DNA of 64,000 nt from a bacterium (GCA_016873475.1 VGXI01000001.1:2079-66078); one strand, 5' to 3'; counted from the stretch's first letter, positions 1 through 33,978 are shown. A program made the numbers and translations. The notes: generated by a model not told the origin, from the letters alone.

Positions 1-464
1 GGGCTCCAGCCGTCGACGACGATGTAGTACAGAGAACCGGCGGTCACCGCGACGGGCGAACCGCTGGCGTAGGTCAGCTCGGAGACGTAGCCCGGGCAGA
101 AGTCGTCGTTGCAGGCGATCACATTGAGGCCAGAATCCAGGACGTAGAGCTTCGTGTCATACGCAGAAGCGGCGCAGAGCGTGATCTCCAGCACGCCGTT
201 CAGGCAGGGCACGAGGGAGTAGACGACATCAGGCGCCCCGGGCAGGTTGTAGGGGCAGACCGCATCGTAGTCGTTGCCGTAGCCGATCGTGCTGCCCGAC
301 CCCGAGAAGGGCAGGACGGTGATCGGCGTGGCAGAGGCGACCGTGTCGCCGCCCTGGCGGTCGAGCGGATGGTCGACGATGGGATAGTTGTAGGGGGTCT
401 TCTCCGCGACGGCCGTCGCGGCGATCAGCAGCAGGCCGACCGTTAGCAAAGTAGCGAGTCTCAT
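1..464 (-). CDS. Secreted cysteine-rich hypothetical protein (5' part only; 3' end lies beyond the window start). N-terminus MRLATLLTVGLLLIAATAVAEKTPYNYPIVDHPL...
   Basis: ATG at about 462-464 on the minus strand, preceded by a GGAGG RBS (caatcaggaggactccATG). Clear signal peptide followed by a Cys-rich mature region; the frame stays open to the window edge. Not listed in the ORF track because it is incomplete. Confidence 0.5.
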   Translation of the reverse strand, partial: MRLATLLTVGLLLIAATAVAEKTPYNYPIVDHPLDRQGGDTVASATPITVLPFSGSGSTIGYGNDYDAVCPYNLPGAPDVVYSLVPCLNGVLEITLCAASAYDTKLYVLDSGLNVIACNDDFCPGYVSELTYASGSPVAVTAGSLYYIVVDGWS

Positions 465-767
465 GGAGTCCTCCTGATTGTCTCAGTTGTTGTTCGCCTC
501 CTGGACGGACAGATCGCTGGTCCCGATCGCCCAGCTTCGGCTCTGACTGGCTTGCGTTCCTGCCAGTGCCGACCCAATGACCGGCGTCCAAGCATGTAAG
601 AGCATAGCATCTGGATTGCTTGCTTTGGAAGCAGGAAAGCGCAGACTCGGCGCTGCCTCCCGGAGCACCCGAGCTCCCCCGAGCCCGCCTGGGGACTGGC
701 ACCTTCCCCCGTTTCTGGAGTATTGTCGCGCTCGACTCCCGAGGCCCGCCGCCGAGGTCCAATCGCG

Positions 768-1574
768 ATGCGCTGCCCCACTCGCCTGCCCGCGCTTCTC
801 CTGCTGCTCCTCCTACCGGCCGCCTCCTGCTCGGAGGAGACCGTGGGCGGCGGCGAGCCGGCGGCCGTCTGGACCGTTCGCGTGCTGGCGAGCTATCCCC
901 ACGATCCAGCGGCATTCACGCAGGGTCTCGTCATCGCCCAAGGGCAGCTCTACGAGAGCACGGGCCTGCACGGGCAGTCGACCCTGCGCCGAGTCGAGGT
1001 CGCGACGGGGGCCGTCCTCGACGGGGTCAGCCTCGACGACGCGGACTTCGGCGAGGGCCTCGCCTACCTGCCTGACGGCGACCGCCTCGCGCAGCTCACC
1101 TGGACCTCGAACCGCGGCCTCGTCTACGCGCGCGACACGCTCGAGCAGGTGGCCGAGTTCAGCTACGCGGGCGAGGGCTGGGGTCTCGCCTTTGACCCGA
1201 CTCGCCAGCGGCTGATCATGAGCGATGGCACGGCGACCCTGCGCTTCCTCGATCCGGCGAGCTTCGCCGAGCTGGGTCGCGTCGAGGTGCGCGAGGGCGG
1301 CCGGCGCGTCGGCATGCTGAACGAGCTGGAAGTCGTGGCCGGCACGCTCTACGCGAACGTGCTGCCGACGAGTCGCATCGCGCGCATCGATCCCGAGACC
1401 GGCCGCCTCGAGGCCTGGATCGACTGCAGCGCCCTGCGCCCCGCCGGCCTGCCGCCCGCCGCTGCGCTCAACGGGATCGCCTACGACCCGGCCGGGGAGC
1501 GCTTCCTGCTGACCGGAAAACTCTGGCCGACGCTCTACGCCGTCGAGTTCCTGCCGCCCAGCTCCGCGCGCTAA
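768..1574 (+). CDS. Glutaminyl-peptide cyclotransferase (glutamine cyclotransferase, beta-propeller type) lipoprotein
   Basis: Motifs FTQGL...ESTGL.G.S.L typical of bacterial/plant-type glutaminyl cyclase. Start refined to the internal ATG (M16 of track ORF 723..1574), which gives a signal peptide MRCPTRLPALLLLLLLPAASC with a lipobox. Confidence 0.7.
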   Translation: MRCPTRLPALLLLLLLPAASCSEETVGGGEPAAVWTVRVLASYPHDPAAFTQGLVIAQGQLYESTGLHGQSTLRRVEVATGAVLDGVSLDDADFGEGLAYLPDGDRLAQLTWTSNRGLVYARDTLEQVAEFSYAGEGWGLAFDPTRQRLIMSDGTATLRFLDPASFAELGRVEVREGGRRVGMLNELEVVAGTLYANVLPTSRIARIDPETGRLEAWIDCSALRPAGLPPAAALNGIAYDPAGERFLLTGKLWPTLYAVEFLPPSSAR

Positions 1575-1628
1575 GCCACGCCACGGCAAGCGCTTCCCTG
1601 CCAGTCCGGGGCGCCGGAAAAAACCGGC

Positions 1629-1660
1629 TTGACATCATATCGAAGTGATATCACACTGTT
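1629..1660 (+). promoter_or_regulatory. Promoter-like element: TTGACA -35 hexamer followed by a perfect 10-bp palindrome GTGATATCAC upstream of the SPFH operon (approximate coordinates)
   Basis: cTTGACAtcatatcgaagTGATATCACactgttatcg is an AT-rich island in GC-rich DNA, about 50-80 nt upstream of the SPFH gene start. The palindrome could be an operator. Confidence 0.35.
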
Positions 1661-1711
1661 ATCGTCCCGACCGCCGAAGGGCGGTCGCCTTACCCCAGCG
1701 AGGAGGCTTCC

Positions 1712-2590
1712 ATGTCCGCCGAACGAATCCGCGGCGCCCTTTCCGGCTACCCGATGCTGCTCGTCATGTTCGCCCTGCTGGCCGGGGCGGTCTGGAGCTT
1801 GGTCAACGCGATTCGCCTGGAGAGCTCGCCCCTGCTCCTGCTCTTCTTCCCGCTCCTCATCCTGGCCTTCCTGAGCATGGCCGGCTTCTTCGTCGTCAAT
1901 CCGAACGACGCGCGCGTGCTGGTGCTCTTCGGCACCTACAAGGGAACGGTGAAGCGGAACGGCTTCTACTGGGCGAATCCCTTCTTCACCAAGCGCAAGA
2001 TCACGCTGCGGGCGCGCAACCTGAACGGCGAGCGCATCAAGGTGAACGACGCGGCGGGCAACCCGATCGAGATCGCCGTCGTGCTCGTCTGGCAGGTTGC
2101 CGAGACCTACAAGGCCTGCTTCGAGGTCGACGACTACGAGCACTACGTCGTCGTCCAGAGCGAGGCGGCCGTGCGGCACATGGCCGGCGCCTACCCCTAC
2201 GACACCTTCAGCGACGAGGACGACCAGGGCCTGACCCTGCGCGGCGGCAAGGACGCGGTGGCCGACGTGCTCGAGCGCGAACTCGGCGAGCGCTTCGCGC
2301 GGGCCGGCATCCAGGTGATCGAGGCCCGCATCAGCCACCTGGCCTACGCGCCGGAGATCGCCGAGGCGATGCTGCGCCGGCAGCAGGCGACGGCCGTCGT
2401 CGCCGCCCGCAGCCAGATCGTCGAGGGCGCGGTGAGCATGGTGGAGATGGCCCTGGAGCGCCTGAGCGCGCGCCACATCGTCGAGCTGGACGAGGAGCGC
2501 AAGGCCGCGATGGTGAGCAACCTGATGGTGGTTCTGTGCAGCGAGAACGCCGCGGCGCCGGTCGTCAACGCCGGCTCGCTCTACCACTAG
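1712..2590 (+). CDS. SPFH/band-7 (stomatin/prohibitin-like) family membrane protein
   Basis: N-terminal TM segment followed by an SPFH domain ([18 protein letters not shown]...[10 protein letters not shown]...). GAGGAGG RBS 7 nt upstream. Confidence 0.8.
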
Positions 2591-2597
2591 GAGCGCC

Positions 2598-2789
2598 GTG
2601 CCCCCCCGCAAGAACTTTCTCTTGCGCATTCCCGAGCCGCTGTGGGAGGACCTCCAGCGCTGGGCCGCCGACGAGCTGCGCAGCGTGAACGCCCAGATCG
2701 AGTTCCTCCTGCAGCGGGCGGTGGCGGAGCGCCGGGGCGGCGCGGCGCCGCCGGCCGAGAGCGACCCGCGAGGCCCGCAGGCCCGATGA
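2598..2789 (+). CDS. Arc/MetJ-type ribbon-helix-helix DNA-binding protein
   Basis: LLRIPEPLWEDLQRWAADELRSVNAQIEFLLQRAV matches the Arc-type RHH pattern. 63 aa; its stop overlaps the next start (ATGA). Confidence 0.6.
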   Translation: MPPRKNFLLRIPEPLWEDLQRWAADELRSVNAQIEFLLQRAVAERRGGAAPPAESDPRGPQAR

Positions 2790-3493
2790 CGCCCAGCCTG
2801 CTCGCGACCCGCGATCTCGCGCGCCACTACCGGCGCGGCCCGCAGACGGTGCGCGCACTGGACGGCGTCAGTTTCGAGCTGGCGCGCGGCGAGTTCCTCG
2901 CCGTGCTCGGCGCCTCGGGCTCGGGCAAGTCGACGCTGCTCAATCTGCTCGCCGGACTCGACACGCCCAGCGCCGGCGAGATTGCGCTCGAGGGCCGCCG
3001 TTTGGACGGGCTCTCGCGCCGCGAGCTGGCTGCCTACCGGTCCGAGCGCGTGGGGATGATCTTCCAGGCCTTCAACCTGCTGCCCCAGTACACGGCGCTC
3101 GAGAACGTCGCGCTCGCCCTCCTCTTCGGCCGCCGCGCCGCCCGCGAGCGGCGCGCCGCCGCGGGGGCGATGCTCGAGCGCCTGGGCCTCGGCGATCGCC
3201 TCGAGCACCGCCCCGGCGATCTCTCGGGCGGCGAGCAGCAGCGCGTGGCCGTGGCGCGCGCGCTCGTCAAGCGGCCGGAGATCCTCTTCGCCGACGAGCC
3301 GACCGGCAATCTCGACCGCGAGAACAGCGAACAGCTCGGCCGGCTGCTGGGCGAACTGGTGGCCGGGGGGCAGACCCTCGTCCTCGTCACGCACGACCGC
3401 GCGCTGGCCGAGCGCCTCGCCCAGCGATTGCTGCGGCTGGACTACGGCCGCATCGCCGAGGTCTGGCAGCCCGTCCGCGAGGCGAGGCCATGA
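2786..3493 (+). CDS. ABC transporter ATP-binding protein (MacB/LolD/FtsE-like)
   Basis: Walker A GASGSGKST, Q-loop, signature LSGGEQQR, Walker B ILFADEPTGNLD. Start refined to the ATG overlapping the upstream stop (M49 of the track ORF); the track's N-terminal extension is Gly/Arg/Pro low-complexity. Confidence 0.85.
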   Translation: MTPSLLATRDLARHYRRGPQTVRALDGVSFELARGEFLAVLGASGSGKSTLLNLLAGLDTPSAGEIALEGRRLDGLSRRELAAYRSERVGMIFQAFNLLPQYTALENVALALLFGRRAARERRAAAGAMLERLGLGDRLEHRPGDLSGGEQQRVAVARALVKRPEILFADEPTGNLDRENSEQLGRLLGELVAGGQTLVLVTHDRALAERLAQRLLRLDYGRIAEVWQPVREARP

Positions 3494-4941
3494 CCCTCGG
3501 CGATGCGCTCGGCATGGCTGCCGGCAACCTGCGCCGCCTGAAGTTGCGTGCGGGGCTGACGATGGCCGGTGTCGTCATCGCCGTGGGGGCGATGGTGGCG
3601 ATGCTCTCCTTCGGGGCGGGCAACCACCGCTTGGGGGCGAGTCAGGCCGAGCGCCTCGGCCTTCTGAACACGGTGCAGGTCACGCCGAGCAGCCCGCGGG
3701 ACAGCCTGCAATCGCCGCCCCTGGACGCGGCCGCCCTCGCCCGCCTCGCGGCCCTCCCCGGCGTGCGGCTTGCCTATCCGCTGGACGCCTTCACGCTCAC
3801 GCTCGCGCGGGGCGAGGGCGCCCTGCCGATCGAAGCGCAGGCGCTGCCGGAGGCCGCGCTCGCGACGCGCCTCTTCTCCCAGCTGCGCGCCGGCGAGGCC
3901 CTGCGGGGCGTGCCGGGCGAGGTCCTCGTCACGGACGCCTTCCTGAGCGCCCTCGACCTGCCCTTCGGCGAGGCCACCGCCGTGGTCGGGGACAGCCTCT
4001 TCGTGAGCCTCACCGTGGCGAGCGTGGACAGCGGCCTCGCGCAGGCGCTGGCGAGCGGGGAGGGCGGCCTCTTCGGCCTCGCCGCCCGGCTGCCTGCAGA
4101 CAGCCTCCGCGATTCCGCCGCGCGGCGCCGCCTGCTGAGCCGCGAGTTGGGCGCCGCGGCCGGCCGCTTCGTTGGCGGCTACCTGGCGGGGACTGTCCTG
4201 CGCGACACCCTCGTCGTGCGCGGCGTCCTGGAGGGCACGCAGTCCAACCGGCTGCGCGTGAAGCCGATCCTCCTGCAGCCAGCCGACGCCCTCCGCTTCA
4301 ACGCCGCCGGCCCGCCCGCCAATCCGCTCGCGCTCGTCACCGCGCTGCAGTCGGGCCAGCTCTTCGCCGCCAGGCCGGACACGGGACGCGGCTATCCCGC
4401 CGTCACCCTGGACCTCGATCCCTACGCGCCCTACGCGGTCGTGCGCGACAGCCTGCGCGCCATGGGCTACCAAGTCTTCAGCTACGCAGACCAGCTCGCC
4501 GACATCCGGCGCGCCTTCGTGATCTTCGACCTTGGGCTGCTCGCCATCGCGCTCGTCGCCCTCGTCACGGCGGCGCTCGGCGTCGTCAACACGCTGCTGA
4601 TGGCGATCAGCGAGCGGCGCCGCGAGATCGGCGTGCTCAAGGCCCTCGGCGCGGACGAGCGCGAGATTCGCTGGCTCTTCCTCGTCGAGTCCGGGCTGAT
4701 GGGCCTGATCGGCTCGATCGGCGGCATCCTGCTGGGCTGGCTGGTGGCGCGCGGCGCCTCGGCCGCGGCCAAGCTCATCATGCAGCGCCAGGGCCTGCCA
4801 CCGCTGGAGCTCTTCGCCACCCCGCTCTGGCTGGTCGCGGGCGCGCTCGCCTTTGGCCTCGCGATCAGCCTCGTTGCCGGCCTGATGCCCGCCGCCCGCG
4901 CCGCCCGCGTGGATGCGGTCGAGGCCCTGCGCGGCGAGTGA
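3490..4941 (+). CDS. ABC transporter permease, FtsX/MacB family
   Basis: N-terminal TM, large periplasmic domain, C-terminal FtsX-like 3-TM bundle (ISERRREIGVLKALGA...). 4-nt overlap with the ATPase gene. Confidence 0.8.
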   Translation: MTLGDALGMAAGNLRRLKLRAGLTMAGVVIAVGAMVAMLSFGAGNHRLGASQAERLGLLNTVQVTPSSPRDSLQSPPLDAAALARLAALPGVRLAYPLDAFTLTLARGEGALPIEAQALPEAALATRLFSQLRAGEALRGVPGEVLVTDAFLSALDLPFGEATAVVGDSLFVSLTVASVDSGLAQALASGEGGLFGLAARLPADSLRDSAARRRLLSRELGAAAGRFVGGYLAGTVLRDTLVVRGVLEGTQSNRLRVKPILLQPADALRFNAAGPPANPLALVTALQSGQLFAARPDTGRGYPAVTLDLDPYAPYAVVRDSLRAMGYQVFSYADQLADIRRAFVIFDLGLLAIALVALVTAALGVVNTLLMAISERRREIGVLKALGADEREIRWLFLVESGLMGLIGSIGGILLGWLVARGASAAAKLIMQRQGLPPLELFATPLWLVAGALAFGLAISLVAGLMPAARAARVDAVEALRGE

Positions 4942-4980
4942 CGGCGCCTGCCGGCCTGGATCCGGGCGAGCCGGCCTGCC

Positions 4981-6366
4981 CTAGCGCTGGCGCGGCGCCA
5001 CCAGCGCGTGCGTCAGTTCGCGCCGCGGCGAGGCGAGGCGCAGGCTCCGGTAGAAGTCCGCGCGCTCGAGCAGCTCGCCCGCGGCGATCAGTGCCAGCAT
5101 GAGCGGCGCCGCCGGCGGGCGGCCTGCGGCGAGCAGCGCTGCGGGCGCGAGGATCCCCAGCCCCACGCGGGCGAGCGCGAGGGGCGCCCAAGGCCGCGGC
5201 TCGCCGGCCCGGCGGGCGATCCAGAAGACGAGCTTGATCGCGAGCAGTGCGGCCAGCGGCCAGGCCCAGCCGCGCAGCGCCGCGGTGTAGACGAGCGCCG
5301 TCGGCAAGGCCTCGGCGCCATGCAGGCCGCCGAGGCCGCGCCGCGGCAGCGCGACGTCGTAGAGCCGGTCCATCGCGTACAGCGCGGCCAGTCCCGCGAG
5401 GGCCCCCGCGAGGCCGATCGCGTAGGGCGCCTCGGGCAGGAAGGCGAGCGGCAGCGCGCCGGCGAGGGCGACGAAGAGCGCGAAGGCGAGGATCTCGCGG
5501 CTGAGCCAGGAGTGCCCGCTGCCGGCCAGCGCGCGCCAGGCGCGCAGGGGGCGGCCGAGGTGCGCGGCGCTGAGCGCCATGGCCAGCAGGCCCCCGATCA
5601 GGATCGGCCACGGCCGATCGAGCCGGCAGGGCGGCAGCGTGTCCAGCTTGAGCGCCACCAGGAAGGGCGCCGCCCAGGTGAAGAGGACCAGCGGCCACTC
5701 CTCGCGCAGGGAGAGGCTGCGGCCGCCGTCCTCGGGTGGCCCGGGCGGCGCGGCGAAGGCGCCGCCGGGAGGCGGCGGCAGATCCGGGAGCGGGCCATGG
5801 GCGCCGGGGCGCAAGGGAATCAGACGCAGCCGCGGACCCGCCGCTGAGGGGGGGAAGCCGGTGAGAGCCGCCACGGCGCCGCCCCCTGCGATCTCGGCCA
5901 GCGGACCCGCCGCGAGGGCGCCCGTGGGGCAGCTCGTCACGCAGGCCGGAGCGCGACCCTCGCCGAGGCGTGGCGCGCAGAGCGTGCACTTGCCCATCGT
6001 GCGCGTTCTGGTGTCGAAGCGCGGCGCGTCGAAGGGGCAGGCCCAGCTGCAGTAGCGGCAGCCGATGCAGCGCTCCGCTTGGATGAGCAGGGCGCCCGTC
6101 GCCGCGTCGCGGCGGTAGGCGTTCGCCGGGCAGGCCGTCGCACAGGGCGACTCGTCGCAGTGATTGCAGGCCAACGAGAGATGGAAGGCCGGCAGGCCGG
6201 CGAGGCCTTCGGGGTTGAAGTCTTCCACGCGCCGCCAGGCGCCCTGCGCCGGCAGCTCGTTCTCGAGAATGCAGGCCAGGGCGCAGGCCTGGCAGCCCGT
6301 GCAGCGATTGAGGTCGAGGCGGAAGCCGGTCTGAGGGGCGCCAGGCGGGTGCGCGCGCGTGTTCAT
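4981..6366 (-). CDS. Fused 4x[4Fe-4S] ferredoxin (DmsB/PsrB/NrfC-like) and DmsC-like membrane anchor subunit
   Basis: Four Cys clusters (CTGCQACALAC; CNHCDESPCATACP; CIGCRYCSWACP; CTLCAPRLGEGRAPACVTSCP) followed by about 250 aa of multi-TM hydrophobic region. The true start MNTRAHPP overlaps the upstream stop (ATGA). The track's 720-aa version has a junk low-complexity N-terminus. Confidence 0.75.
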   Translation of the reverse strand: MNTRAHPPGAPQTGFRLDLNRCTGCQACALACILENELPAQGAWRRVEDFNPEGLAGLPAFHLSLACNHCDESPCATACPANAYRRDAATGALLIQAERCIGCRYCSWACPFDAPRFDTRTRTMGKCTLCAPRLGEGRAPACVTSCPTGALAAGPLAEIAGGGAVAALTGFPPSAAGPRLRLIPLRPGAHGPLPDLPPPPGGAFAAPPGPPEDGGRSLSLREEWPLVLFTWAAPFLVALKLDTLPPCRLDRPWPILIGGLLAMALSAAHLGRPLRAWRALAGSGHSWLSREILAFALFVALAGALPLAFLPEAPYAIGLAGALAGLAALYAMDRLYDVALPRRGLGGLHGAEALPTALVYTAALRGWAWPLAALLAIKLVFWIARRAGEPRPWAPLALARVGLGILAPAALLAAGRPPAAPLMLALIAAGELLERADFYRSLRLASPRRELTHALVAPRQR

Positions 6367-8429
6367 CGCCGAGCCCGCTCCACCTGCACGCGGTTCTCGT
6401 GGAAGGCGGCGCCGTGGCCGAGGTCCGTCTCGCGGCCGGCCGAGAGCAGGTTGACGCCGCCGCCCTCGGCGCGCTGCCAGCCGTTGTGGGCGAGCACGCT
6501 GCCGGCGAGCAGGCGCGCGTCCAGGTGCGCGGCGAGCGTCAGCGTGCCGCGGGCGTTGAAGACGCGCACCGCGTCGCCCTCCTCGATGCCGCGCGCGGCG
6601 GCGTCGGCGGGAGCGAGGTGCAGGCGCGGCGCCGGATCCAGGGCGCGGATCAGCGCGAGCTGCCCGAACTGCGAGTGGATGCGGTTCTTCGTGTTGGGCG
6701 TCATGAGGAGCAGCGGGTAGTCGCGTGCGGTTGCGGCGTCCGCGCCCGCCTCGGGACCGGCGAGATGCTGCGGCAGCGGATCGACGCCCCAGCGCCGCGC
6801 CGCCTCTTCCGAGTAGAGCTCGACGCGGCCGGAGGGCGTGGGGAAGCGGCGGTCCGCGAAGGCCACCTCGGCGAACTCGGGCGAGAGCACGGGTCCCGCC
6901 TTGAGATCCGCCAGCTCGAGACCGGGGAAGGGAGCGAGGCGGCGCGCGAGCCAGGCGTCCACGTCCGCTTCGTCCGGGATCTCGGCGTCGACCGCGGCCT
7001 GCGGCAGATCCAGGCGCGCGGCGAGTTGGCGGTAGATCCAGGTCTCGGGCCGCGCCTCGCCGGGCGGCGCGAGCAGCTTGGGCCGGTACTGGAGGTAGGG
7101 GTGCCAGTAGGCGCCGATCACGTCCGCCTGTTCGAGGAAGCACTTCGCGGGCAACACGAGGTCGGCCTCGCGCGCGGTGTCCGTGAGCGTCTCCTCGACG
7201 ACGACGCGGAAGTCGAGGGCGCGAAAGGCGGCCAGCACGCGGTTCGTGTCGGGGTTCTGGCTGAGCGGATTGCCGCGCTCCACCCAGGCGAAGCGCAGCG
7301 GCGGCTCGCGCTGCGCGAGCATGTCCTCGCCCAGGCGCGCGGTGGAGACGCTCACGCGCAGCGGCCCGTCTTCACCGCTCGGGGGCGGGTAGGCGGCCTC
7401 GGGATCCTTCGTCCCGAAGATGTTCGCCTGGAGATTGGCGAACTGCCAGCCGCCGCCGGCGAGGCCGAGGTTGCCGGTGATCGCCGGCAGGGCGATCAGC
7501 GCGCGCATCGCCTGGCCGCTGTGGGCATAGCGCTGCATGCCGAAGCCCGCGATCAGGGTCGCGGGCCGCCGCGCCATGAAGCGCTCGGCGAGGGCCGCGA
7601 TCTCGGCCTCGCCGAGGCCGCAGGTCCGCGCCGCGCGGGCGAGTGGCCACTCGGCGGCGCGCGCGGCGAAGGGCGCGAAGCCGAGCACGTGCCGGTCGAT
7701 GAACTCGCGATCGACGGCGCCGCGCTCGATGAGCCGATTCGCCACGGCGAGGGCGAGCGCGCCGTCCGTGCCAGGCCGCGGCCTGAGGCAGAGGTCGGCG
7801 CGGTCGGCGGTCTCCGTGCGCCGTGGGTCGATGACCACCAATTCGGCGCCCCGCTCGCGCGCCGCGGCGACGAAGCCCATCTGGTGTACGTTCGTCTCGG
7901 CGGCGTTCTTGCCCCACAGAACGATCAGCCGCGCGTTGACCAGGTCCCAGGGCGCGCTGTGCGTGTTGGCGCCGAGGGTCAAGCGGCTGGCCTCCAGGCC
8001 CGACATCCAGCAGAGGTCGCCGTAGGTCACCGTGGCGCCGCCGAAGAGGCGCCAGAAGGCAAGGCCGGCGCCGTTCAGCAAGCCCTTCGTGCCGCTGGCC
8101 GTGTAGTAGAGAAGGCTCCGCGGACCGGGCGAGCGGCGCAGCGCAGCGAGGCGCTCGGCCAGCTCGTCGAGGGCCGCCTCCCAGGCGATGGGGACGAAGC
8201 TGCCGTCGCGCTGGCGGCGCAGCGGCCGGCGCAGGCGATCGGGGGAGTGCACGCGCTCGACGTAGGCGAGGCCCTTGAGGCAGGGTCCCTCGGCCGTGGC
8301 GCGATTGGCGGCCAGCGGCTCGACGGCGCGCAAGCGGCCGTCCTCGATGCGCAGCGAGAGGCCGCAGGTGCTGTAGCAATTGCGCGGACAGGCGCTGATC
8401 GCGGCGGGCGCTGCGGGCGGCTCGGCCAC
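6363..8429 (-). CDS. Molybdopterin (Mo-bisPGD) oxidoreductase catalytic subunit, DMSO-reductase family, with no recognisable Tat signal
   Basis: N-terminal CX2CX3C...C FeS motif (CPRNCYSTCG...C) followed by molybdopterin oxidoreductase and MopB C-terminal domains. The likely start is a GTG at 8429 preceded by GAGGAGGA. The region upstream of it in the track ORF (to 8699) is Arg/Gly-rich junk, and no RRxFLK motif is present. Confidence 0.7.
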   Translation of the reverse strand: MAEPPAAPAAISACPRNCYSTCGLSLRIEDGRLRAVEPLAANRATAEGPCLKGLAYVERVHSPDRLRRPLRRQRDGSFVPIAWEAALDELAERLAALRRSPGPRSLLYYTASGTKGLLNGAGLAFWRLFGGATVTYGDLCWMSGLEASRLTLGANTHSAPWDLVNARLIVLWGKNAAETNVHQMGFVAAARERGAELVVIDPRRTETADRADLCLRPRPGTDGALALAVANRLIERGAVDREFIDRHVLGFAPFAARAAEWPLARAARTCGLGEAEIAALAERFMARRPATLIAGFGMQRYAHSGQAMRALIALPAITGNLGLAGGGWQFANLQANIFGTKDPEAAYPPPSGEDGPLRVSVSTARLGEDMLAQREPPLRFAWVERGNPLSQNPDTNRVLAAFRALDFRVVVEETLTDTAREADLVLPAKCFLEQADVIGAYWHPYLQYRPKLLAPPGEARPETWIYRQLAARLDLPQAAVDAEIPDEADVDAWLARRLAPFPGLELADLKAGPVLSPEFAEVAFADRRFPTPSGRVELYSEEAARRWGVDPLPQHLAGPEAGADAATARDYPLLLMTPNTKNRIHSQFGQLALIRALDPAPRLHLAPADAAARGIEEGDAVRVFNARGTLTLAAHLDARLLAGSVLAHNGWQRAEGGGVNLLSAGRETDLGHGAAFHENRVQVERARR

Positions 8430-8587
8430 GGGGTCCTCCTCGAGGTCGGGCGGGGGTGCCGGGCAGTATGCCCAGCCGCCGCGCCCCCCGCAATGCCGGC
8501 TTCGCCGTTGCCTGTGGCGGCCGCGGGCCCTACACTGGAGCGGCCCTGCGGAATCGGTCTCGGATTCCCGATCCCCATGGAGTGAGA

Positions 8588-10633
8588 ATGCGGGCGCTGT
8601 CGCTGTTCGTCCCGCGCTTGCTGTTGCTCTGCCTGCTTCCGCTCCTCGCGAGCGTCGCGGTGCCCGCGCTGGCCGACGCGGCCAAGACCCCCACGCCACC
8701 CGACAGCCTGCCCGGTGTCTATGCGCTGCCGTCCGTGGTGGTGACCGCCGATCCGCTCGCCCCGGCGCCGGCGCTCGGCGAGACGCGCCTGGGGGGGCCG
8801 TCCCTGCGCGAGAGGAGCGAGCCCGATGTCGCGGGCCTCGCGCCCCTGCTGCCCGCGCTGCGCCTCGGCCTCAACTCGCGCGGTGAATCGCAATTCATGC
8901 TGCGCGGCGCTTCGGAGCGCCACCTGCTGGTCAGCCAGGACGGCATTCCCCTGAACCTGGCCTGGGACGAGCGCAGCGACCTCTCCCTGCAGCCGGCCGA
9001 GGCCGTGGGAGCGGTGCGCGTCCGTCGCGGCGTGCGCAGCCTCTTGCAGGGCGCCGGCGCCCTGGCCGGCAGCCTCGAGCTGCACTCGCGGGCGGCGCCG
9101 GCGGCGGGCGGCGAGAGCGCGCTCGACCTCGGCGTCGGCGAAGCCGGCCACCTTCGCGCGGCCCTGCTGCACGGGCGCCGCCTCGGCGCCTGGGGCCTGC
9201 TCGCGAGCCTCGCCCGCACTCGCCGCGACGGCTGGCTCCGACCCGCCGGCTACCACAGCGCCTACAACGAGGCGCAGGGCCGCCTGCGCCAGAACAGCGA
9301 CCTCGCGCGCGCGAGCGCATTCGTCACGCTCGATAGGCCGCTGCCCCGCGAGGGCCGCCTCGCGCTGCACCTGGGGGGCAGCCGCGTCGAGAAGGGAGTG
9401 CCACCGGAAACGCACAGCGAGGACGCGCGCTTCTGGCGTTACCCGGACAGCCAGCGCTGGCTCGGCGGCTTCGGCCTCGATCAGCCGCTGGACGCGGGGG
9501 GCGCCTGGCGGCTCGGCCTCGTCGCCGCCCTCGACGCTGCCGACACGGACATCCTCGACTACGAAGACGCCAGCTACAGCGGGCCCGCGGCGGCGATCGG
9601 CCGCGAGCTCGACGAAGACCGCACGCTGCACCTGCGCCTGCTCCTCGAGCGCCGTTTCGCGGGCGGTCGCCTCAGTCTGGCCAGTGAGCTGCGCAACGCG
9701 CGCCACAAGGAGCTGCTCCCCGGGGAAACGGACTGGCAGCGCTATGCGCAGCGCCGCATCGCGGAGACACTGGAACTGGAGTTCTCGCCGCGTCCGGCCT
9801 GGACTCTGCGCGCCGGCACGGCTTGGCTGCGCGCGTCGACGCCCGCGAGCGGCGACAAGCCGGCCCGCGATGCCGATCAGATGAGCGACTGGCTCCTGTC
9901 CCTGGGCCGCCGGCTCGATGGTGCACAGTCGCTCGAGCTGTCGCTCTCGCGCCGCGGGCGCTTCCCCGGCCTGCGCGAGCTCTACTCGGGCGCGCTGGGG
10001 AAGTTCGTCCCCAATCCGGATCTCGCGCCCGAGGCACAGACCCTCACCGAGCTGGCCTACCGCCGCGAGGGCGAGCGGCTGCGCCTGGACTGCTCGCTCT
10101 TCGCGGCGCGGCTCGCCGGCGCCATCGAGCGCATCGTCGTGAACAGCGAGACGGGCGCCTTTCAGCGCGTGAACCTCGACGCGCTGCGCAGCCTGGGGGC
10201 CGAGGCCGAGCTGGCCCTGCGCGCAGGCGCCGGAGTCGACGTGAGCATCCACTGGCTGCAGCTCGCGGCGCGCCGCCGCGTGGATGGCGACTACGAGGGC
10301 CAGGTCGAGGACCGCCCGAACTGCATCGGCGGTCTGCGCCTGGGCTGGTCTGCTCCTCGCGGCTGGCGCCTGGGCGCGGAAGCCGGCCTGCTCGGCCCGC
10401 GCTGGAGCGCCGACGCCACCGATGCGGCGGACGGCCTGCGCCGCCTGCCGGCGCAGGGCCGCCTCGCGCTGCTCGCCGCCTGGCGGCGCTACCTCGGCCG
10501 GGCCGGCCTCGAGGACCTCGAGCTGCGCCTGCGCCTGGACAATGCGCTCGACAGCATCGTCGAGTCGCAGACCGGCCTGGTCGAGCCGGGGCGCAGCCTT
10601 CAGGTCGGCCTGCGCCTGGGCCTGGGCGTCTGA
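8588..10633 (+). CDS. TonB-dependent receptor family outer-membrane protein (plug + beta-barrel); putative cobalamin/BtuB-like receptor by context
   Basis: Signal peptide MRALSLFVPRLLLLCLLPLLASVAVPALA. Plug-domain motifs (VVVTADPL...ETRLGG...NSRGESQFMLRGASERHLLVSQDGIPLN). Start refined to M45 of the track ORF with GGAG RBS. The C-terminus lacks the usual terminal aromatic residue, so the family assignment is moderate. Confidence 0.6.
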   Translation: MRALSLFVPRLLLLCLLPLLASVAVPALADAAKTPTPPDSLPGVYALPSVVVTADPLAPAPALGETRLGGPSLRERSEPDVAGLAPLLPALRLGLNSRGESQFMLRGASERHLLVSQDGIPLNLAWDERSDLSLQPAEAVGAVRVRRGVRSLLQGAGALAGSLELHSRAAPAAGGESALDLGVGEAGHLRAALLHGRRLGAWGLLASLARTRRDGWLRPAGYHSAYNEAQGRLRQNSDLARASAFVTLDRPLPREGRLALHLGGSRVEKGVPPETHSEDARFWRYPDSQRWLGGFGLDQPLDAGGAWRLGLVAALDAADTDILDYEDASYSGPAAAIGRELDEDRTLHLRLLLERRFAGGRLSLASELRNARHKELLPGETDWQRYAQRRIAETLELEFSPRPAWTLRAGTAWLRASTPASGDKPARDADQMSDWLLSLGRRLDGAQSLELSLSRRGRFPGLRELYSGALGKFVPNPDLAPEAQTLTELAYRREGERLRLDCSLFAARLAGAIERIVVNSETGAFQRVNLDALRSLGAEAELALRAGAGVDVSIHWLQLAARRRVDGDYEGQVEDRPNCIGGLRLGWSAPRGWRLGAEAGLLGPRWSADATDAADGLRRLPAQGRLALLAAWRRYLGRAGLEDLELRLRLDNALDSIVESQTGLVEPGRSLQVGLRLGLGV

Positions 10634-10652
10634 GCTTCCAAGAAGGCAGACC

Positions 10653-10681
10653 TTGACCGGCGGGTATCTGTACTGTACGCT
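10653..10681 (+). promoter_or_regulatory. Promoter/operator candidate upstream of the CarH-like gene: TTGACC followed by tandem TGTAC half-sites (tatcTGTACTGTACgct); approximate coordinates
   Basis: AT-richer island about 70 nt upstream of the regulator start. GTAC-containing repeats of the same kind recur downstream of the gene (CTGTACAG). Confidence 0.3.
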
Positions 10682-10746
10682 ACCTGAACAATTCCTCTCC
10701 CGAATCCCCGGGACCTGGCAGGGCGAGGCAGGCCGGACGCTGAGCG

Positions 10747-11706
10747 ATGGACGAAGCCGAAGCCCGACATCCAATCGCCGTGGTCATGCGGCGCACGCGC
10801 CTGAGCGCGGAGCTGCTGCGGGCCTGGGAGCGGCGCTACGGCGCCGTCCGGCCGGGCCGCGGCGCGACCGGCCGGCGCCTCTACTCCGACCTCGACATCG
10901 AGCGCCTGCGCCTGCTCAAGCAGCTCACCGAAGGGGGGCGGCGCATCGGCGAGGTGGCGGCGCTGCCGCTCGCCGCGCTGCAGGGCCTCGAACGCGAGGA
11001 CATCGCCGCCCGGCTGGAGAGCGCCGCGCTCGCGCCGGCCCGGCCGGCCGGCCCGGGGCGGCCGGCGCCGGGCGAGGAGTGTGCGGCGCTGCTCGCCCGC
11101 GCCCTGGCGGCCGTGGAAGACCTCGATCCCCGCGCCCTGCAGGCCGTGCTCGGCGAGGCGAGCGTCGCGCTCAGTCCCGCGCGCCTGCGCGAGGAGTTCC
11201 TCGTGCCCTTGATGGTGCTCATCGGGCAGCGCTGGCACGAGGGCAGCCTGCGCGTGGCGCACGAGCACCTCGCCACGGCCGTCGTGCAGGGCTTCGTGAC
11301 CGAACTCCAGCGGCGGCCACCCCTCTCCGAGACGGCGCCGCGCCTGGTGGCGGCCACGCTCACCGGCAGTCGCCACGAGCTCGGCGTTCTCCTGGCCTGC
11401 GCGGCCGCGGCCGAGGAGGGCTGGGACGTGGCCTACCTGGGCCCCGGGCTGCCGGCCGAGGAGATCGCGGCCGCCGCCCGCCAGCGCCGGGCCCAGGCCG
11501 TGGCGCTGGGTCTCACCCTCATCGACGACCGGGCCTTCGTTCAGAGGGAGCTGGGCCGCCTGCGCGAGCTGATCGGCCCCGGCGTCCAGCTCTACATCGG
11601 CGGCGCGGCCGCCTCCCGCCTCGGCGATGCCCTGGGGCCCAGCGGGGCGGTGGCGGTCCCGACCCTCGCGGAATTCAGCCGCCTCCTCCGTCTCAAGTCA
11701 AACTAG
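10747..11706 (+). CDS. CarH/LitR-like MerR-family regulator with C-terminal cobalamin-binding domain (putative light/B12-responsive)
   Basis: N-terminal MerR HTH (AVVMRRTRLSAELLRAWERRYG). Wx9EH motif (WHEGSLRVAHEH). B12-binding xHxxG (SRHELG) plus GWDVAYLG. Confidence 0.75.
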   Translation: MDEAEARHPIAVVMRRTRLSAELLRAWERRYGAVRPGRGATGRRLYSDLDIERLRLLKQLTEGGRRIGEVAALPLAALQGLEREDIAARLESAALAPARPAGPGRPAPGEECAALLARALAAVEDLDPRALQAVLGEASVALSPARLREEFLVPLMVLIGQRWHEGSLRVAHEHLATAVVQGFVTELQRRPPLSETAPRLVAATLTGSRHELGVLLACAAAAEEGWDVAYLGPGLPAEEIAAAARQRRAQAVALGLTLIDDRAFVQRELGRLRELIGPGVQLYIGGAAASRLGDALGPSGAVAVPTLAEFSRLLRLKSN

Positions 11707-11736
11707 AAGAATAGTTTACGGCCCTGGTCAGGGCGC

Positions 11737-11772
11737 CGGCCTGCCCGGCGTTGCCACTGCTTATCAAACGTA
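11737..11772 (+). terminator. GC hairpin (cgccggc-ctgc-ccggcg) followed by a T-richer stretch downstream of the CarH-like gene; approximate coordinates
   Basis: Perfect 6-7 bp GC stem with a 4-5 nt loop, about 30 nt after the stop, followed by ttgccactgcttatc. Confidence 0.35.
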
Positions 11773-11817
11773 CAGATTTTTCCCTGACGACCTTAGGCTC
11801 TTCGTCTAGATTTTGTC

Positions 11818-11825
11818 CTGTACAG
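11818..11825 (+). promoter_or_regulatory. Perfect palindrome CTGTACAG in an AT-rich intergenic region (a second GTACAGA copy about 45 nt upstream); candidate CarH-type operator/promoter for the downstream gene
   Basis: Region 11707-11893 is unusually AT-rich for this genome. The palindrome and the related aacGTACAGAttt repeat resemble the TGTAC repeats upstream of the CarH-like gene. Confidence 0.3.
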
Positions 11826-11893
11826 AGCGGCAGCAAGCAGCACCGGCGGACGCCGGAGAGCTTCTCGACCGGACCAAACGACGGAGGCCAACG

Positions 11894-12122
11894 ATGACGA
11901 AGCACTTCCTCTTCGGGCTGACTGGCCCTTCCCTCGCGCTGATCGCCACCCCGCAGGCCCAGCCGACTGCAGGGCTCGCCGAGACCCTGAGCGGGCGCGG
12001 CCCCTTCACGCTCTTCGCGCCCACGGACGAGGCCTTCGCCAAGCGGCCCGCCGGCACGGTCGAGGCCCTGCTCAAGGATCCCGAGGCCCTGCGCGCCATC
12101 CTGCTGCACCCCGTCGTCGCTG
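11894..12122 (+). pseudogene. Fasciclin (FAS1) domain gene fragment, truncated (only about 75 aa of an about 135-aa FAS1 domain, then the frame is lost)
   Basis: [42 protein letters not shown] matches FAS1 up to the H-box. GGAGG RBS. After about 12120 the frame continues as Arg/Gly junk, and the coding signal moves to another frame. Confidence 0.5.
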
Positions 12123-12500
12123 GCACCGCTCGCGGAGGCCTTCTCGGGCAGCAGCGCCGTCCTGCTGCGCGCCCTGCACGGCTCGCCCGATGCCCCGGCC
12201 GTGGACATCGGCACGGTGAGCGGCGGCACCTTCACCGCGGTGCCCGGTCTCACCGATCTGGCCTTCGGGGACGCCTCTGCCAGCTCGGGCCTGGCCTTGC
12301 CGGCCGGTCCGATCGTGCTCGGCATCGCCGCGGCCAACGCCCCCGATCCCGTGGCCACCTTCAGCGTGGCGCCGGCTTCCGGACAGCGCCTGTTCGCGCT
12401 GGCCCTCGGCTCGCTCGCGGGCCAAGGCGAGGACTTCCGCCTGGTGCAGGTCGACACCGCGCCTGCGACCTGGTCGGCAACCTCCGTCATGCCGGGCTGA
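12117..12500 (+). pseudogene. DUF4397-like domain fragment (one repeat) in a different frame from the preceding fasciclin fragment; likely frameshifted or decayed gene
   Basis: [24 protein letters not shown]... matches the DUF4397 [11 protein letters not shown] signature. There is no start codon or RBS of its own. Confidence 0.45.
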
Positions 12501-12656
12501 AGGCCGACGCGATCGCCAGTACTGGGCGCTTCAATCGGCAAGGGCAGGGGGCGGGCGCCGCGAGCTGCCCGCCCCTCATTTCGCCGGCGTTTCCCGCCTG
12601 GGCACTGCCACTGCTCTGTGCTAGGCTGCCCGCTTTCCACCGCGGAGGCGAGCCGC

Positions 12657-14063
12657 ATGAACGGCGAGATCGACATCAGCTTCTGGGGCGCGGCGCGGGA
12701 CGTCACCGGCAGCCGCCACCTGCTCGGCCTGGGGGCCGAGAGCATCCTCTTCGACTGCGGCCTCGTGCAGGGCAAGCGCGCCGAGGCCGACCGGGCCAAC
12801 CGCGAGCTGCCCTTCAAGGCGAGCGCGGTGAAGGCCGTCCTGCTCAGCCACGCTCACATGGACCACGGCGGCAACCTGCCCAGCCTCGTCGCCCGCGGCT
12901 TCAGGGGCAAGATCCACTGCACGCGGGCCACGGCCGACCTGCTGGCCGTGATGCTCAGGGACAGCGCCCACATCCAGGCGCGCGACGCCGAGTGGCTGAA
13001 CCGCCGGCGCCGGCGCGGCGAGGCGCCCGTCGAGCCGCTCTACGACCTGGCCGACGTCGAGCGCACGCTGGGTCTGATCGAGCCGCATCCCTACCGGAAG
13101 TCCTTCAGCGTGCGGCCGGGGGTGACCGCGACCTTCCGCGACGCGGGGCACATCCTGGGCAGCGCCTTCGTCGAGACGGTGATCGAACGCGGGGGCGGCC
13201 AGCGCCTGCGCCTCACCTTCTCGGGCGACCTGGGCCGGCGCTTCCTGCCCATCCTCAAGGATCCCGAGCAGCCCGAGGCCGCCGACGTGCTGATCCTGGA
13301 GAGCACCTACGGCGACCGCTTCCACGCCGACATCCGCGGCGCCGAGGAGCAGCTCGGCGCGATCGTCGGTCGCACCGCCGCGCGGGGCGGCAAGGTGATC
13401 ATCCCCGCCTTCAGCGTGGGCCGCAGCCAGGAGCTCATCTACGAGCTGCACCGCCTGATCACGGCGGGGGAGATCCCCGACCTGCCGGTCTACATCGACA
13501 GCCCGCTCACGGCGAAGGCGAGCCAGGTTTTCGCCGCCCACGAGGAGTGCTTCGACGCCGAGACCTGGGCGATCCTGTCGGCGGGCGGCGATCCCTTCGG
13601 CTTCGAGCGCATGCGCTACGTGGAGAGCGTCGAGGAGTCCAAGCGCCTGAACAGCCACCGCGGGCCCTGCGTGATCATCTCCGCCTCGGGCATGTGCGAA
13701 GCCGGCCGCGTGCTGCACCACCTCGCCAACAGCGTCGAGGACCCGCGCAACACGGTGCTCATCGTCGGCTTCCAGGCGGGAAACACGCTGGGGCGGCGGC
13801 TCGAGGAGGGCGCCAAGCGCGTGCGCATCCTCGGCGAGGAGTACAAGGTGGCCGCCGAGGTCGTCGCCCTGCATGCCTACAGCGCCCACGCGGACCGGCT
13901 CGACCTGCTGCGCTTCTACGAGAACATGCGGGAGCGGCCGGGGCGCATCTTCCTGGTCCACGGCGAGGAGCGCCAGTCGGAGGCCCTGGCCGCGGCCCTG
14001 CGCGAGAAGGGCGCGGCCGCGGTGGAGGTGCCCGCCCTCGGCGATCGCTTCCGGCTCGAGTAA
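12657..14063 (+). CDS. MBL-fold metallo-hydrolase of the beta-CASP family (RNase J / RNA-metabolising type)
   Basis: HAHMDHGG motif. Beta-CASP motifs and a C-terminal RNA-specificity region. Start refined to [12 protein letters not shown] with GGAGG RBS. Confidence 0.8.
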
Positions 14064-14143
14064 GGCACTTCCACTGCGCGCGCCGCCCGAAGTACCCGGC
14101 TCGAGGAGAGCGCCCGAATCCCGGCGGACCAACAAGCAGGCTC

Positions 14144-14254
14144 TGGGACGGCTGCACGGATGCGGGCGGGGCTGCCGCGGCAGGTGTCTACTTCGCCCGG
14201 GTGCGCTATACTGATGGGACGGTAGCCTCGCGGAAGTTCACCCTCCTGCGATAA
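14144..14254 (+). pseudogene. Orphan 3' remnant of a T9SS/FlgD-Ig-type C-terminal sorting domain (…[37 protein letters not shown])
   Basis: Only the last roughly 35 aa of the conserved C-terminal sorting domain remain, with no upstream body in frame. It lies between the RNase J-like gene and the next gene. Confidence 0.45.
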
Positions 14255-14261
14255 GGAGGCG

Positions 14262-18325: not shown

Positions 18326-18479
18326 GGCGGGCTCCTTCGTCGGTGGTCGGCAGACCCGACCAGTATAGCAGAAGGCGACCTGGGCTTGCGGGGCGAGCCT
18401 AGGCCCGGCGCATTGTCTTGCCAAGCCGAATCCATTGGGCTAAGCCTAGGCGCGTTGCCAACCTGCCCGAGGTGGCCCG

Positions 18480-21217: not shown

Positions 21218-21302
21218 CCTCGCCGTCTTCTCCGCGGCGCGGCAATGGTCTATAATTGACCGATTCCAACCCGGCTCGACGCCGGCCGCCCGCGGAGCGA
21301 CG

Positions 21303-22055
21303 ATGTCCCCTCGCCCCTGGCAGCGCTTTGTCCGCGCCCTCGCGCCGGCGCTCTGCGCGCTCGGGCTCAGTGCGCCGCACGCGGCGGCCGGCACGGCCCT
21401 GGCGATCAGTCCGCCGGGCGCGGTCGATACCCGCGGGCCCCGCTTCACGCTGCTCGCACCCGAGCCGGGGGCCATCCTCATCGGCGGCGAGAGCGTCACG
21501 CTGCGCTGGTCGCTCGAGGACCCCTATCTGCCGGCGGGGCAGGCCGGGCAGGCGCCGCTCGGCCTGAGCTTCCACGTGGACGGAGCGCTGGTGCACGCGG
21601 ACTCGCTGAGCCTCGCGGCGGGCATCGGTCAGCCGCCCAGCTTCGCCTACTTCTGGCTCGTCCCGTCGCTGCCCACGGAGAACTGCCGCTGGACGCTGAC
21701 TCTCGCCGACGCCTTCGGCAACCTGGGCACGATCGAGAGCGAGCCGCACCGCATCGCCACCGACGAGAGCCCCGCCGACGCGCTCGCGCCCGCGGCGCTG
21801 AGCCTCGCGCCCAATTGGCCGAACCCATTCAATCCCGCCACGCGGCTGCGTTTCGGCCTGCCCCGCGCCGGCAGCCCGCGCCTGACCATCCACGACGTGC
21901 AGGGCCGCGAGCTCGCGCGGCTCTGGGACGGCCCGCATCCAGCCGGCTGGCTCGAACTGGAATGGCGGCCGCAGGCCCTGGCCAGCGGCGTCTACTTCGC
22001 GCGTCTCGTCCTGGACGGCGAGCAGCTCACCCGCAAGCTGGTGCTCCTCAAATGA
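21303..22055 (+). CDS. Secreted hypothetical protein with T9SS-type C-terminal sorting domain
   Basis: Signal peptide. C-terminal NWPNPFNPATRLRFGLP...GVYFARLVLDGEQLTRKLVLLK. TATAAT-like element about 45 nt upstream. Confidence 0.6.
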   Translation: MSPRPWQRFVRALAPALCALGLSAPHAAAGTALAISPPGAVDTRGPRFTLLAPEPGAILIGGESVTLRWSLEDPYLPAGQAGQAPLGLSFHVDGALVHADSLSLAAGIGQPPSFAYFWLVPSLPTENCRWTLTLADAFGNLGTIESEPHRIATDESPADALAPAALSLAPNWPNPFNPATRLRFGLPRAGSPRLTIHDVQGRELARLWDGPHPAGWLELEWRPQALASGVYFARLVLDGEQLTRKLVLLK

Positions 22056-29017: not shown

Positions 29018-29136
29018 TGCTCACCTCGCGAGAGGCCACAATTCTAGCAGATCCGCGCCGGACGCGGGGCCTTGAAATGGGCGGAGTTCGCGCTCCGGAA
29101 CGGTGGGCAATCCCGGGGTCGTCCGCGGAAGGGAGC

Positions 29137-33933: not shown

Positions 33934-33978
33934 CTCGGCCAATTGACACGCGCTCACAACCCCACGCAGGACTGCGGC

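Follow-up and report, generated by a model that had tools for sequence, protein, structure and literature searches.

A leaderless DmsABC-like molybdoenzyme with a fused iron–sulfur and membrane-anchor subunit, predicted to face the cytoplasm

Organization of the operon

The subject of this report is a pair of genes on the minus strand of a 64,000-nucleotide stretch of bacterial DNA (GCA_016873475.1, VGXI01000001.1:2079-66078), the whole of which is called the window below. The first gene encodes subunit A, the catalytic subunit of an oxidoreductase with a molybdenum or tungsten bis-pyranopterin guanine dinucleotide cofactor (Mo/W-bisPGD). The second encodes BC, in which an iron–sulfur (FeS) domain resembling DmsB is fused to a membrane anchor resembling DmsC. 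The operon and its borders comprise the following features.

6363..8429, minus strand: gene A, leaderless Mo/W-bisPGD catalytic subunit, 688 amino acids plus stop, GTG start
4981..6366, minus strand: gene BC, DmsB-like FeS domain fused to a DmsC-like anchor, one protein of 461 amino acids
8435..8441, minus strand: GAGGAGG as ribosome-binding site, upstream of the GTG at a distance of 5 nt
6363..6366, minus strand: ATGA in which the stop of A and the start of BC overlap, translational coupling
8430..8587: intergenic region of 158 bp that separates the Mo-enzyme operon (minus strand) from the divergent gene of a TonB-dependent receptor (plus strand)

The analyzed stretch has a G+C content of about 72%, and chance open reading frames (ORFs) are therefore plentiful. 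A chance feature can be ruled out here because more than 2500 database proteins match A (E<=1e-10) and more than 1100 match BC (E<=1e-5); the 120 homologs listed for each were used for the length and identity ranges given below. The two-gene operon for a membrane-bound Mo enzyme is thus confirmed as a real feature. An original prediction, made from the sequence alone, had placed such a pair at 4981-8429, and two real minus-strand genes do fill that interval. Its description of the gene structure was also accurate in other respects: the start codon of A is a GTG (8429-8427) with GAGGAGG 5 bases 5' of it, where GGAGG had been noted; the two genes overlap by ATGA at 6366-6363; and the second gene alone encodes both the four [4Fe-4S] clusters and the DmsC-like anchor (16 Cys, Fer4_11, PF04976). 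Gene A contains the Pfam domains Molybdop_Fe4S4, Molybdopterin and Molydop_binding. Its frame stays open upstream to 8699, and this extension, dismissed as Arg/Gly junk in the original prediction, is indeed rich in Arg and Gly, contains RR pairs, has no hydrophobic stretch and runs into the divergent TonB-receptor gene, the likely ATG of which is at 8588. A scan of 4800-8800 found no sigma-70-like promoter, and the only terminator-like match in that interval is uninformative, as it falls within gene A and has the wrong strand.

The catalytic subunit

The cofactor ligands of subunit A are encoded at the following positions.

8364..8390, minus strand: motif C14-X3-C18-X3-C22 (CPRNCYSTC) of the [4Fe-4S] cluster FS0, type II with DmsA-like spacing
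8280-8282, minus strand: C50, the fourth FS0 ligand
8010..8012, minus strand: codon of Cys140, within the invariant G-D-L-C-W, aligned with the Mo-ligand Ser of dimethyl sulfoxide (DMSO) reductases

N-termini and conservation were assessed in alignments of 46 A homologs and 42 BC homologs. The FS0 motif had been misread as CX2CX3C; it is C14-PRN-C18-YST-C22 followed by C50, a CX3CX3C arrangement as in E. coli DmsA (CTVNCGSRC), and all four Cys are invariant. Cys140 is also invariant. It aligns with the Ser of GDYS in the DMSO reductase of R. sphaeroides (Ser147), with S205 of the E. coli DmsA precursor, presumably the residue numbered 'Ser176' in older literature, and with the FdhF Cys of the hydrogen-dependent carbon dioxide reductase (HDCR). 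Strong constraint on the protein is indicated by a mean column identity of 66% in the alignment of A, and the listed homologs measure 675-722 amino acids with 59-100% identity. The signature of formate dehydrogenases (FDH) is absent, as Cys140 is followed by Trp and not by His, and an invariant Asn332 occupies the position of Arg333 in FdhH. Instead, the active site shows a conserved signature of its own, GDLCW / W328-x2-A-N-L, which was found in no characterized enzyme compared.

The best NCBIfam model for A is TIGR02166 (dmsA_ynfE), with 292 bits against a cutoff of 778, and no NCBIfam model reaches its cutoff for either protein of the operon. Further models score as follows (bits vs cutoff): Fdh-alpha 234 vs 666, NasC 173 vs 1100, PhsA 158 vs 694, NasA 115 vs 1000, narG 88 vs 1084 and narH 45 vs 524. 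No model for Soe is found among the best 25 of 27 NCBIfam matches. Compared with E. coli DmsA, subunit A has 28% identity and is shorter than the mature protein by about 80 residues.

Assignment to several known groups was examined with these scores and motifs. For the formate dehydrogenases, besides the low Fdh-alpha score, A has neither a selenocysteine/Cys-His dyad nor an Arg at the R333 position. With the Psr/Phs group the complex has only the Cys ligand and the fold of the B and C modules in common; it stays below the PhsA cutoff, has no leader and carries CX3CX3C. NarGHI differs by its narG and narH models, both below cutoff here, and the window complex has a DmsC-type anchor with no chaperone gene nearby. 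The assimilatory nitrate reductases, which the original prediction had named as the cytoplasmic group lacking DmsBC partners with which A might cluster, are not where A falls: NasC and NasA stay below their cutoffs, DmsA/YnfE is the best model and a conserved BC partner is present. The same evidence bears on the broader proposal of a membrane-tethered cytoplasmic reductase for nitrate, chlorate, selenate or a similar oxyanion, comparable to Nas/NarB or to a small Nar, which we regard as very improbable. The NasC match spans residues 38-341 only and is outscored by DmsA/YnfE, Fdh-alpha and BisC; none of the loci has a linked gene for a nitrate/nitrite transporter or a nitrite reductase; and the invariant Asn at the FDH Arg333 position, compared with FdhH only, speaks against anion binding of the FDH kind.

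The fused iron–sulfur and anchor protein

BC is divided into two domains and a linker.

5872..6333, minus strand: B domain, residues ~12-165, four Cys groups for four [4Fe-4S] clusters, no signal peptide in front
5701..5871, minus strand: Pro/Gly-rich linker, residues ~166-222, about 55 residues, low predicted local distance difference test score (pLDDT) at ~200-210
4984..5700, minus strand: C domain, residues ~223-461, eight transmembrane (TM) helices, DmsC homolog (PF04976)
5494..5571, minus strand: TM2-TM3 loop SAAHLGRPLRAWRALAGSGHSWLSRE with S266/H269/S286/E291, on the same side as the B domain

In order, the protein consists of 16 Cys in four ferredoxin-type groups (Fer4_11), the Pro-rich linker and the DmsC domain. 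All 16 Cys of the B domain are invariant. The stretch CIGCRYCSWACP, which includes the group CIGCRYC-x3-CP, is nearly identical to CIGCRYCHMACP of E. coli DmsB, and the B domain as a whole has 38% identity with that protein. TIGR02951 (DMSO_dmsB) is the top NCBIfam model for BC (148 bits, cutoff 214), and the PF04976 match reaches 34.6 bits with a cutoff of 22.3. The C domain can be aligned with E. coli DmsC from its start (EEWPLVLFT vs HEWPLMIFT) to TM8 (AGELLERADFY vs AGELIGRGVFY), and eight helices are seen both in the hydropathy of the alignment and in an AlphaFold2 (AF2) model. This model covers BC by itself and is confident as a single body, with a pLDDT of 87.6 and a predicted TM-score (pTM) of 0.88. 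A Foldseek search with BC identified the polysulfide reductase of Thermus, with TM-scores normalized by target of 0.77 for PsrB (2vpw_B) and 0.54 for PsrC (2vpw_C). The 120 listed homologs of BC measure 434-485 amino acids, have the same Fer4 domains and in most cases a recorded DmsC match.

In E. coli DmsC, the quinol site is formed by S62, H65, S82 and E87 (PMC8076601). The respective counterparts in BC are S266, which most sequences have at this position, and the invariant H269, S286 and E291.

Absence of an export signal and predicted orientation

In window A, 13 residues precede FS0, and in all 46 homologs the number is 3-26, mostly 7 (consensus MPxxTTA-CPRNCYSTC). The BC proteins also start directly with the FeS domain, with 10-29 residues before the first ferredoxin Cys (42/42). 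A leader of 45 amino acids with SRRGLVK is seen for E. coli DmsA in the same alignment. No leader of the twin-arginine translocation (Tat) type, consisting of an RR motif and a hydrophobic region, was found in any of the three frames upstream of 8429, and 8430..8587 is too short and in all frames too hydrophilic to hide one. Judged by these N-termini, neither protein family carries a Tat or Sec signal, and the leaderless start is a property of the family and not an assembly error. This agrees with the original prediction, which had described a catalytic subunit without a twin-arginine leader and had allowed for one to emerge in frame once a sequencing frameshift was corrected; no such leader emerged from the upstream frames or from the homologs.

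If a Tat leader had been lost by a frameshift or a miscalled start, the complex would be an ordinary periplasm-facing reductase of the DmsABC/PsrABC type, and the in-frame ORF that remains open to 8699 with its RR dipeptides could be taken to point that way. The chance of this is close to negligible. The homologs come from independent assemblies and agree on a short N-terminus, the upstream frame is of the Arg/Gly-rich kind described above, the spacing between ribosome-binding site and GTG is correct, the BC N-termini are leaderless and the charge bias of the anchor is inverted. A frameshift or hidden leader was rejected by way of the three upstream frames and the N-termini of the 46 A and 42 BC homologs.

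The distribution of Lys and Arg (K+R) in the anchor points to an inward-facing B domain. The loops beside the B domain average 17.5 K+R and the four short far-side loops 1.1, a bias whose sign is shared by all 42 sequences. Read from the same alignment, the bias of E. coli DmsC is the reverse, 2 vs 4; its much shorter far-side loops, KGDLRAEAQQR and LKKLSPALR, contain the larger part of the positive charge. The termini of E. coli DmsC and its DmsAB partners lie on the membrane's periplasmic side (P-side) (PMC8076601). In BC, the B domain precedes the membrane domain, has no helix before it and would for this reason stay where it is made.

An alternative is that the complex is exported anyway, either by hitch-hiking on an unlinked Tat protein or by a non-canonical crossing of the FeS domain, so that the active site would be periplasmic. 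Hitch-hiking by a subunit without a signal is well known, as for DmsB with DmsA (PMC4273604, PMC10609526). Export of this complex would nonetheless be most surprising, as clustering of all ORFs of 84 related loci revealed no conserved third gene beside the pair and the K+R bias puts the B-side loops inside in every sequence. Furthermore, we know of no Tat cargo in which a folded four-cluster domain is joined to a polytopic domain of eight helices. Since such a fusion is not a plausible Tat cargo, the joining of B and C is easiest understood without export. Tat itself appears to be available in at least one host lineage, where it is used for another Mo enzyme: the metagenome-assembled genome (MAG) of 'Ca. 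Polarisedimenticola svalbardensis' AM4 carries the operon, and its PsrA has been reported with a Tat leader (PMC8528874).

The reading that we prefer, at a probability of about 75%, is that A and BC form a cytoplasm-facing, quinone-coupled, DmsABC-like Mo/W-bisPGD oxidoreductase with a membrane orientation opposite to that of DmsABC. The predicted cytoplasmic position of the catalytic subunit, already part of the original prediction, is supported by the family-wide absence of a leader and by an anchor charge that is inverted relative to E. coli DmsC.

Distribution and gene neighborhood

A genome scan with one genome per species yielded at least 563 confirmed relatives, of which 80 loci were kept. 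These are distributed over more than 10 phyla, with an identity to window A of 55-64% in 79 loci and of 83% in one. The host groups are Gemmatimonadota, several classes of Acidobacteriota, Krumholzibacteriota, Eisenbacteria, Latescibacterota, Calditrichota, Ignavibacteria, Bacteroidota, Planctomycetota, Myxococcota, Deferribacteres and Omnitrophota. Window BC matches, with full identity, an NCBI entry of an unclassified bacterial MAG, and the closest named relatives among the matches listed belong to Krumholzibacteriia. Where enough flanking DNA was available (73 loci), B and C are encoded in one ORF directly after A in 72. A locus from a Gemmatimonadota MAG (JBDHLC010000065.1) has an unrelated opposite-strand gene of ~560 amino acids (8177-9853) between A and BC.

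The neighborhood of the operon is not conserved. No gene family recurs beside it throughout the 84 loci; the commonest are FG-GAP proteins (10 loci) and an Ogt methyltransferase (7 loci), functionally unrelated to each other, and the remaining families, among them response regulators and nitrilases, occur in at most 10 loci each. A chaperone of the TorD/DmsD/NarJ type, a transporter or a regulator was not found linked to the operon in the window, in the 84 loci or in the called-gene tables of three distant carriers.

Twenty window genes were scanned with Pfam. On the side of BC, the operon is flanked by convergent genes that encode an ABC ATPase and an FtsX permease, and on the other by the TonB receptor and a MerR/B12-binding regulator. 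The latter two (8588-11706, plus strand) comprise a TonB-dependent receptor with Plug and beta-barrel domains and, after it, a regulator of the MerR family that has two B12-binding domains, an architecture like that of the light/B12 sensor CarH. Linkage of this receptor and regulator to the Mo enzyme is not conserved in other genomes. The block at 1-4941 of the window (glutaminyl cyclase, SPFH/Band7 protein, ABC ATPase and FtsX/MacB permease) is syntenic with 11416-15550 of the locus L001 in a Krumholzibacteriia MAG (GCA_020633725.1), in which the other flank of the operon is occupied by a resistance-nodulation-division (RND) efflux system in place of the TonB receptor. The synteny supports a Krumholzibacteriota-like origin of the window.

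Farther away, large predicted secreted proteins are encoded at 14262-15737 (plus strand), 15827-18424 (minus), 27164-29020 (minus) and 33745-35838 (plus). Their C-termini are of the FlgD_ig/Por_Secre_tail type, as in sorting by a type IX secretion system (T9SS), and they carry BNR/sortilin or glycoside hydrolase (GH32/GH43) modules, which suggests a polysaccharide-degrading lifestyle. An ORF of 1306 amino acids at 21260-25180 (plus strand) contains the unusual pairing of an FGE-sulfatase domain (formylglycine-generating enzyme-like) with a GH32 N-terminal domain. Another ORF (35857-37758, minus strand, 633 amino acids) shows a strong bias of the coding type in G+C at third codon positions (GC3) and has no Pfam match at E<=1e-5.

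Evolutionary origin of the fusion

Relatives beyond the fused family were collected by an exhaustive search of 50%-identity cluster representatives followed by contig look-up. The family is nested in a very large set of leaderless proteins of ~650-700 amino acids that have CX3CX3C and often G-[SDN]-L-C-W; the source names of the cluster representatives are all generic. A relative from Bacteroidales with 50% identity still has a fused BC. Two relatives at 47-49%, both on metagenome contigs (L087 5001-8496 and L091 4001-7403), have A, B and C as separate, overlapping genes, with a B of 190-194 and a C of 270-301 amino acids and an overlap of 4 nt at each junction. In L087, the split operon that was analyzed, neither A nor B has a leader, and the anchor shows the charge bias of the fused family. 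The four relatives examined at 35-41% are stand-alone leaderless A genes, one of them from a cultured Clostridium. Proteins of this kind, such as the uncharacterized oxidoreductase of Clostridium zeae WP_206869496.1, have the missing leader and the CX3CX3C motif in common with window A; unlike the window pair, the four have no B/C partner and are presumably soluble. In a plasmid collection, the only relatives were of at most 35% identity with generic names.

The simplest reading of this series, as we infer it, has three steps. A soluble cytoplasmic enzyme would have recruited a DmsB/DmsC pair in an inward orientation, after which the adjacent B and C genes fused. The split operons of L087 and L091 look like the unfused precursor state of BC, and the fusion probably arose from adjacent, overlapping B and C genes that are still present in sister lineages. 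It would be workable because nothing must pass through Tat.

Comparison with known systems

The family, or any DmsB-DmsC fusion, was not found described in open-access full text, and a description in a subscription journal is possible. A search on cytoplasmic complex iron–sulfur molybdoenzymes (CISM) and on the molybdoenzymes of Gemmatimonadetes and Acidobacteriota returned the SoeABC precedent and otherwise papers on other clades only.

DmsABC and YnfEFGH of E. coli (menaquinol:DMSO/selenate reductases) are built from the same three modules, each of which is the best-scoring model here, and have a type II FS0. Window BC further has in common with DmsABC the four [4Fe-4S] groups with a near-identical CIGCRYC..ACP, the anchor of eight helices and counterparts of S62/H65/S82/E87. 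In contrast, DmsA has its Tat leader and a Ser ligand, whereas window A is leaderless with a Cys ligand, and B and C, separate proteins in DmsABC with the A-B dimer and the anchor termini on the P-side, are fused in the window, where the charge bias of the anchor is inverted. There is also no linked DmsD-like chaperone gene, and the NCBIfam scores are far below the cutoffs.

The original prediction had called an inward-facing anchored complex atypical, which is fair, but precedents exist in NarGHI and SoeABC (PMC8076601). For SoeABC of Allochromatium vinosum and Aquifex aeolicus, the catalytic dimer has been proposed to lie on the cytoplasmic side (N-side), with an anchor inverted relative to other family members, and SoeC has been grouped apart from bacterial DmsC within the same broad dendrogram group (PMC8076601). 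The Mo-bisPGD/FeS/NrfD-like layout of three modules, the leaderless catalytic subunit and the cytoplasm-facing inverted anchor of SoeABC would all be common to the window complex; compared by description, SoeABC differs in that SoeB and SoeC are separate proteins. SoeA, at ~109 kDa, is also much larger than window A. Like the complex proposed for the window, NarGHI is a Mo-bisPGD enzyme that is anchored in the membrane, has its active site in the cytoplasm and a type II FS0, and is not exported by Tat. Unlike that complex, it has a NarG of ~1250 amino acids with an Asp ligand and HX3CX3C, an anchor (NarI) that is a di-heme b protein unrelated to DmsC, and a need for NarJ. What sets the window complex apart from both precedents is its likeness to DmsABC in all modules, the combination of a type II scaffold with a Cys ligand, and the fusion of FeS subunit and anchor. 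As a structural template, PsrABC of Thermus thermophilus (2vpw) fits both halves of BC best, with PsrB and PsrC as separate proteins. PsrA has a Cys Mo-ligand and a type I FS0 (CX2CX3C), and is Tat-exported and periplasmic.

Proposed electron path and direction of catalysis

In the cytoplasm-facing arrangement that we prefer, subunit A, having no export signal, would fold, acquire its cofactors and remain in the cytoplasm. The FeS domain of BC would likewise stay cytoplasmic, and the domain of eight helices would then be inserted co-translationally with its N-terminus inside. By homology, electrons would pass between Mo-bisPGD (Cys140), FS0, the B domain's four [4Fe-4S] clusters and a site for quinone/quinol, which is predicted to lie in the TM1-4 bundle (S266/H269/S286/E291) beside the FeS domain at the cytoplasmic face. 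The enzyme by itself would form no redox loop because the substrate and quinone sites are placed on the same side.

Several points weigh against this arrangement. Its orientation rests on the absence of a signal and on charge bias. The models cover A and BC as separately folded subunits. The partnership of A with BC is not absolute: a locus in an Omnitrophota MAG (L078, JBLMYT010000056.1) has an A homolog with 56% identity at 5980-8043 followed by a convergent gene, and the 6 kb to each side of it contain neither a B nor a C. Here the partner may be encoded elsewhere, or the enzyme may have reverted to a soluble form. No linked gene hints at the substrate or at the direction of catalysis. Finally, the chemical analogy with DmsABC is weak, because the pairing of a Cys Mo-ligand with a type II FS0 matches no characterized enzyme compared. 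The original prediction that a substrate could not be called from the sequence stands accordingly, with an uninformative gene context and an active-site signature unmatched among the characterized enzymes compared. The absence of a linked transporter suggests that the substrate may be membrane-permeant or produced endogenously.

As for direction, a cytoplasm-facing sulfite dehydrogenase analogous to SoeABC (or a dehydrogenase of another low-potential substrate such as formate or an aldehyde) that reduces menaquinone and feeds the respiratory chain has been considered. SoeABC is itself a Mo enzyme of three modules, one of them an NrfD-like anchor, and has been proposed to reduce quinone and to be oriented towards the N-side (PMC8076601). 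The stand-alone and apparently unregulated operon, strongly conserved in aerobes and anaerobes, would also fit a housekeeping role in electron input or detoxification. A Cys Mo-ligand is usual in enzymes that handle sulfur, selenium, arsenic, formate or nitrate. Against the analogy, all three modules score best on DmsABC models, and characterized DmsABC enzymes oxidize quinol; genes of sulfur metabolism are linked neither in the window nor in the 84 loci; SoeA is of a different size; and the formate variant conflicts with the missing FDH signature (Trp after Cys, Asn at FdhH Arg333). Overall, this alternative appears unlikely.

Within the preferred reading of a quinone-coupled, cytoplasm-facing complex, there is a weak preference, little better than even, for a quinol-driven reductase of a neutral or endogenous oxidized compound over a dehydrogenase that feeds quinone. 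The reductase direction is in line with the DmsABC-like modules, and the dehydrogenase direction with the SoeABC precedent and with a Cys ligand typical of the enzyme groups named above. Most of the host phyla use menaquinone. A bolder proposal, which we consider tentative and on balance doubtful, is that the family constitutes an unrecognized, widespread module of respiration or redox housekeeping, an 'inside-out' complex of the DMSO-reductase type with a chemistry of its own, marked by the Cys-ligated Mo/W center in a type II scaffold and by the active-site signature given above, that links the menaquinone pool to a cytoplasmic metabolite handled by no known Mo enzyme.

Significance

Mo-bisPGD enzymes with anchors of the NrfD/DmsC type are the textbook example of periplasm-facing, Tat-dependent respiratory reductases, and SoeABC is, to our knowledge, the only complex with such an anchor that has been proposed to face inward. 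With its predicted orientation, the locus described here would represent a second inward-facing lineage with this anchor type, and one that is much more similar to DmsABC than SoeABC is. The proteins are labeled in databases either generically or as subunits of 'DMSO reductase' or as 'anaerobic selenocysteine-containing dehydrogenase', and the use of such labels in metagenome pipelines brings a risk that cycling of DMSO and dimethyl sulfide (DMS) is falsely inferred. The inverted topology, the fusion and the wide distribution make the family a worthwhile target of moderate interest, the precedents for the orientation tempering its novelty.

The family also offers a test case for the co-evolution of orientation, Tat dependence and gene fusion, in that stand-alone A, split A-B-C and fused A-BC look like stages of a series, and for the question of whether flipped NrfD-like anchors work alike. 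If the 'inside-out' module is real, inverting a CISM complex would lift the constraint of Tat and permit the fusion of an FeS subunit with a polytopic anchor. The carriers include abundant soil and sediment groups, namely Gemmatimonadota, Acidobacteriota, Planctomycetota and relatives of Bacteroidota. Once worked out, the function of the complex would supply, for many uncultured bacteria, a so far unannotated connection of the quinone pool with cytoplasmic metabolism.

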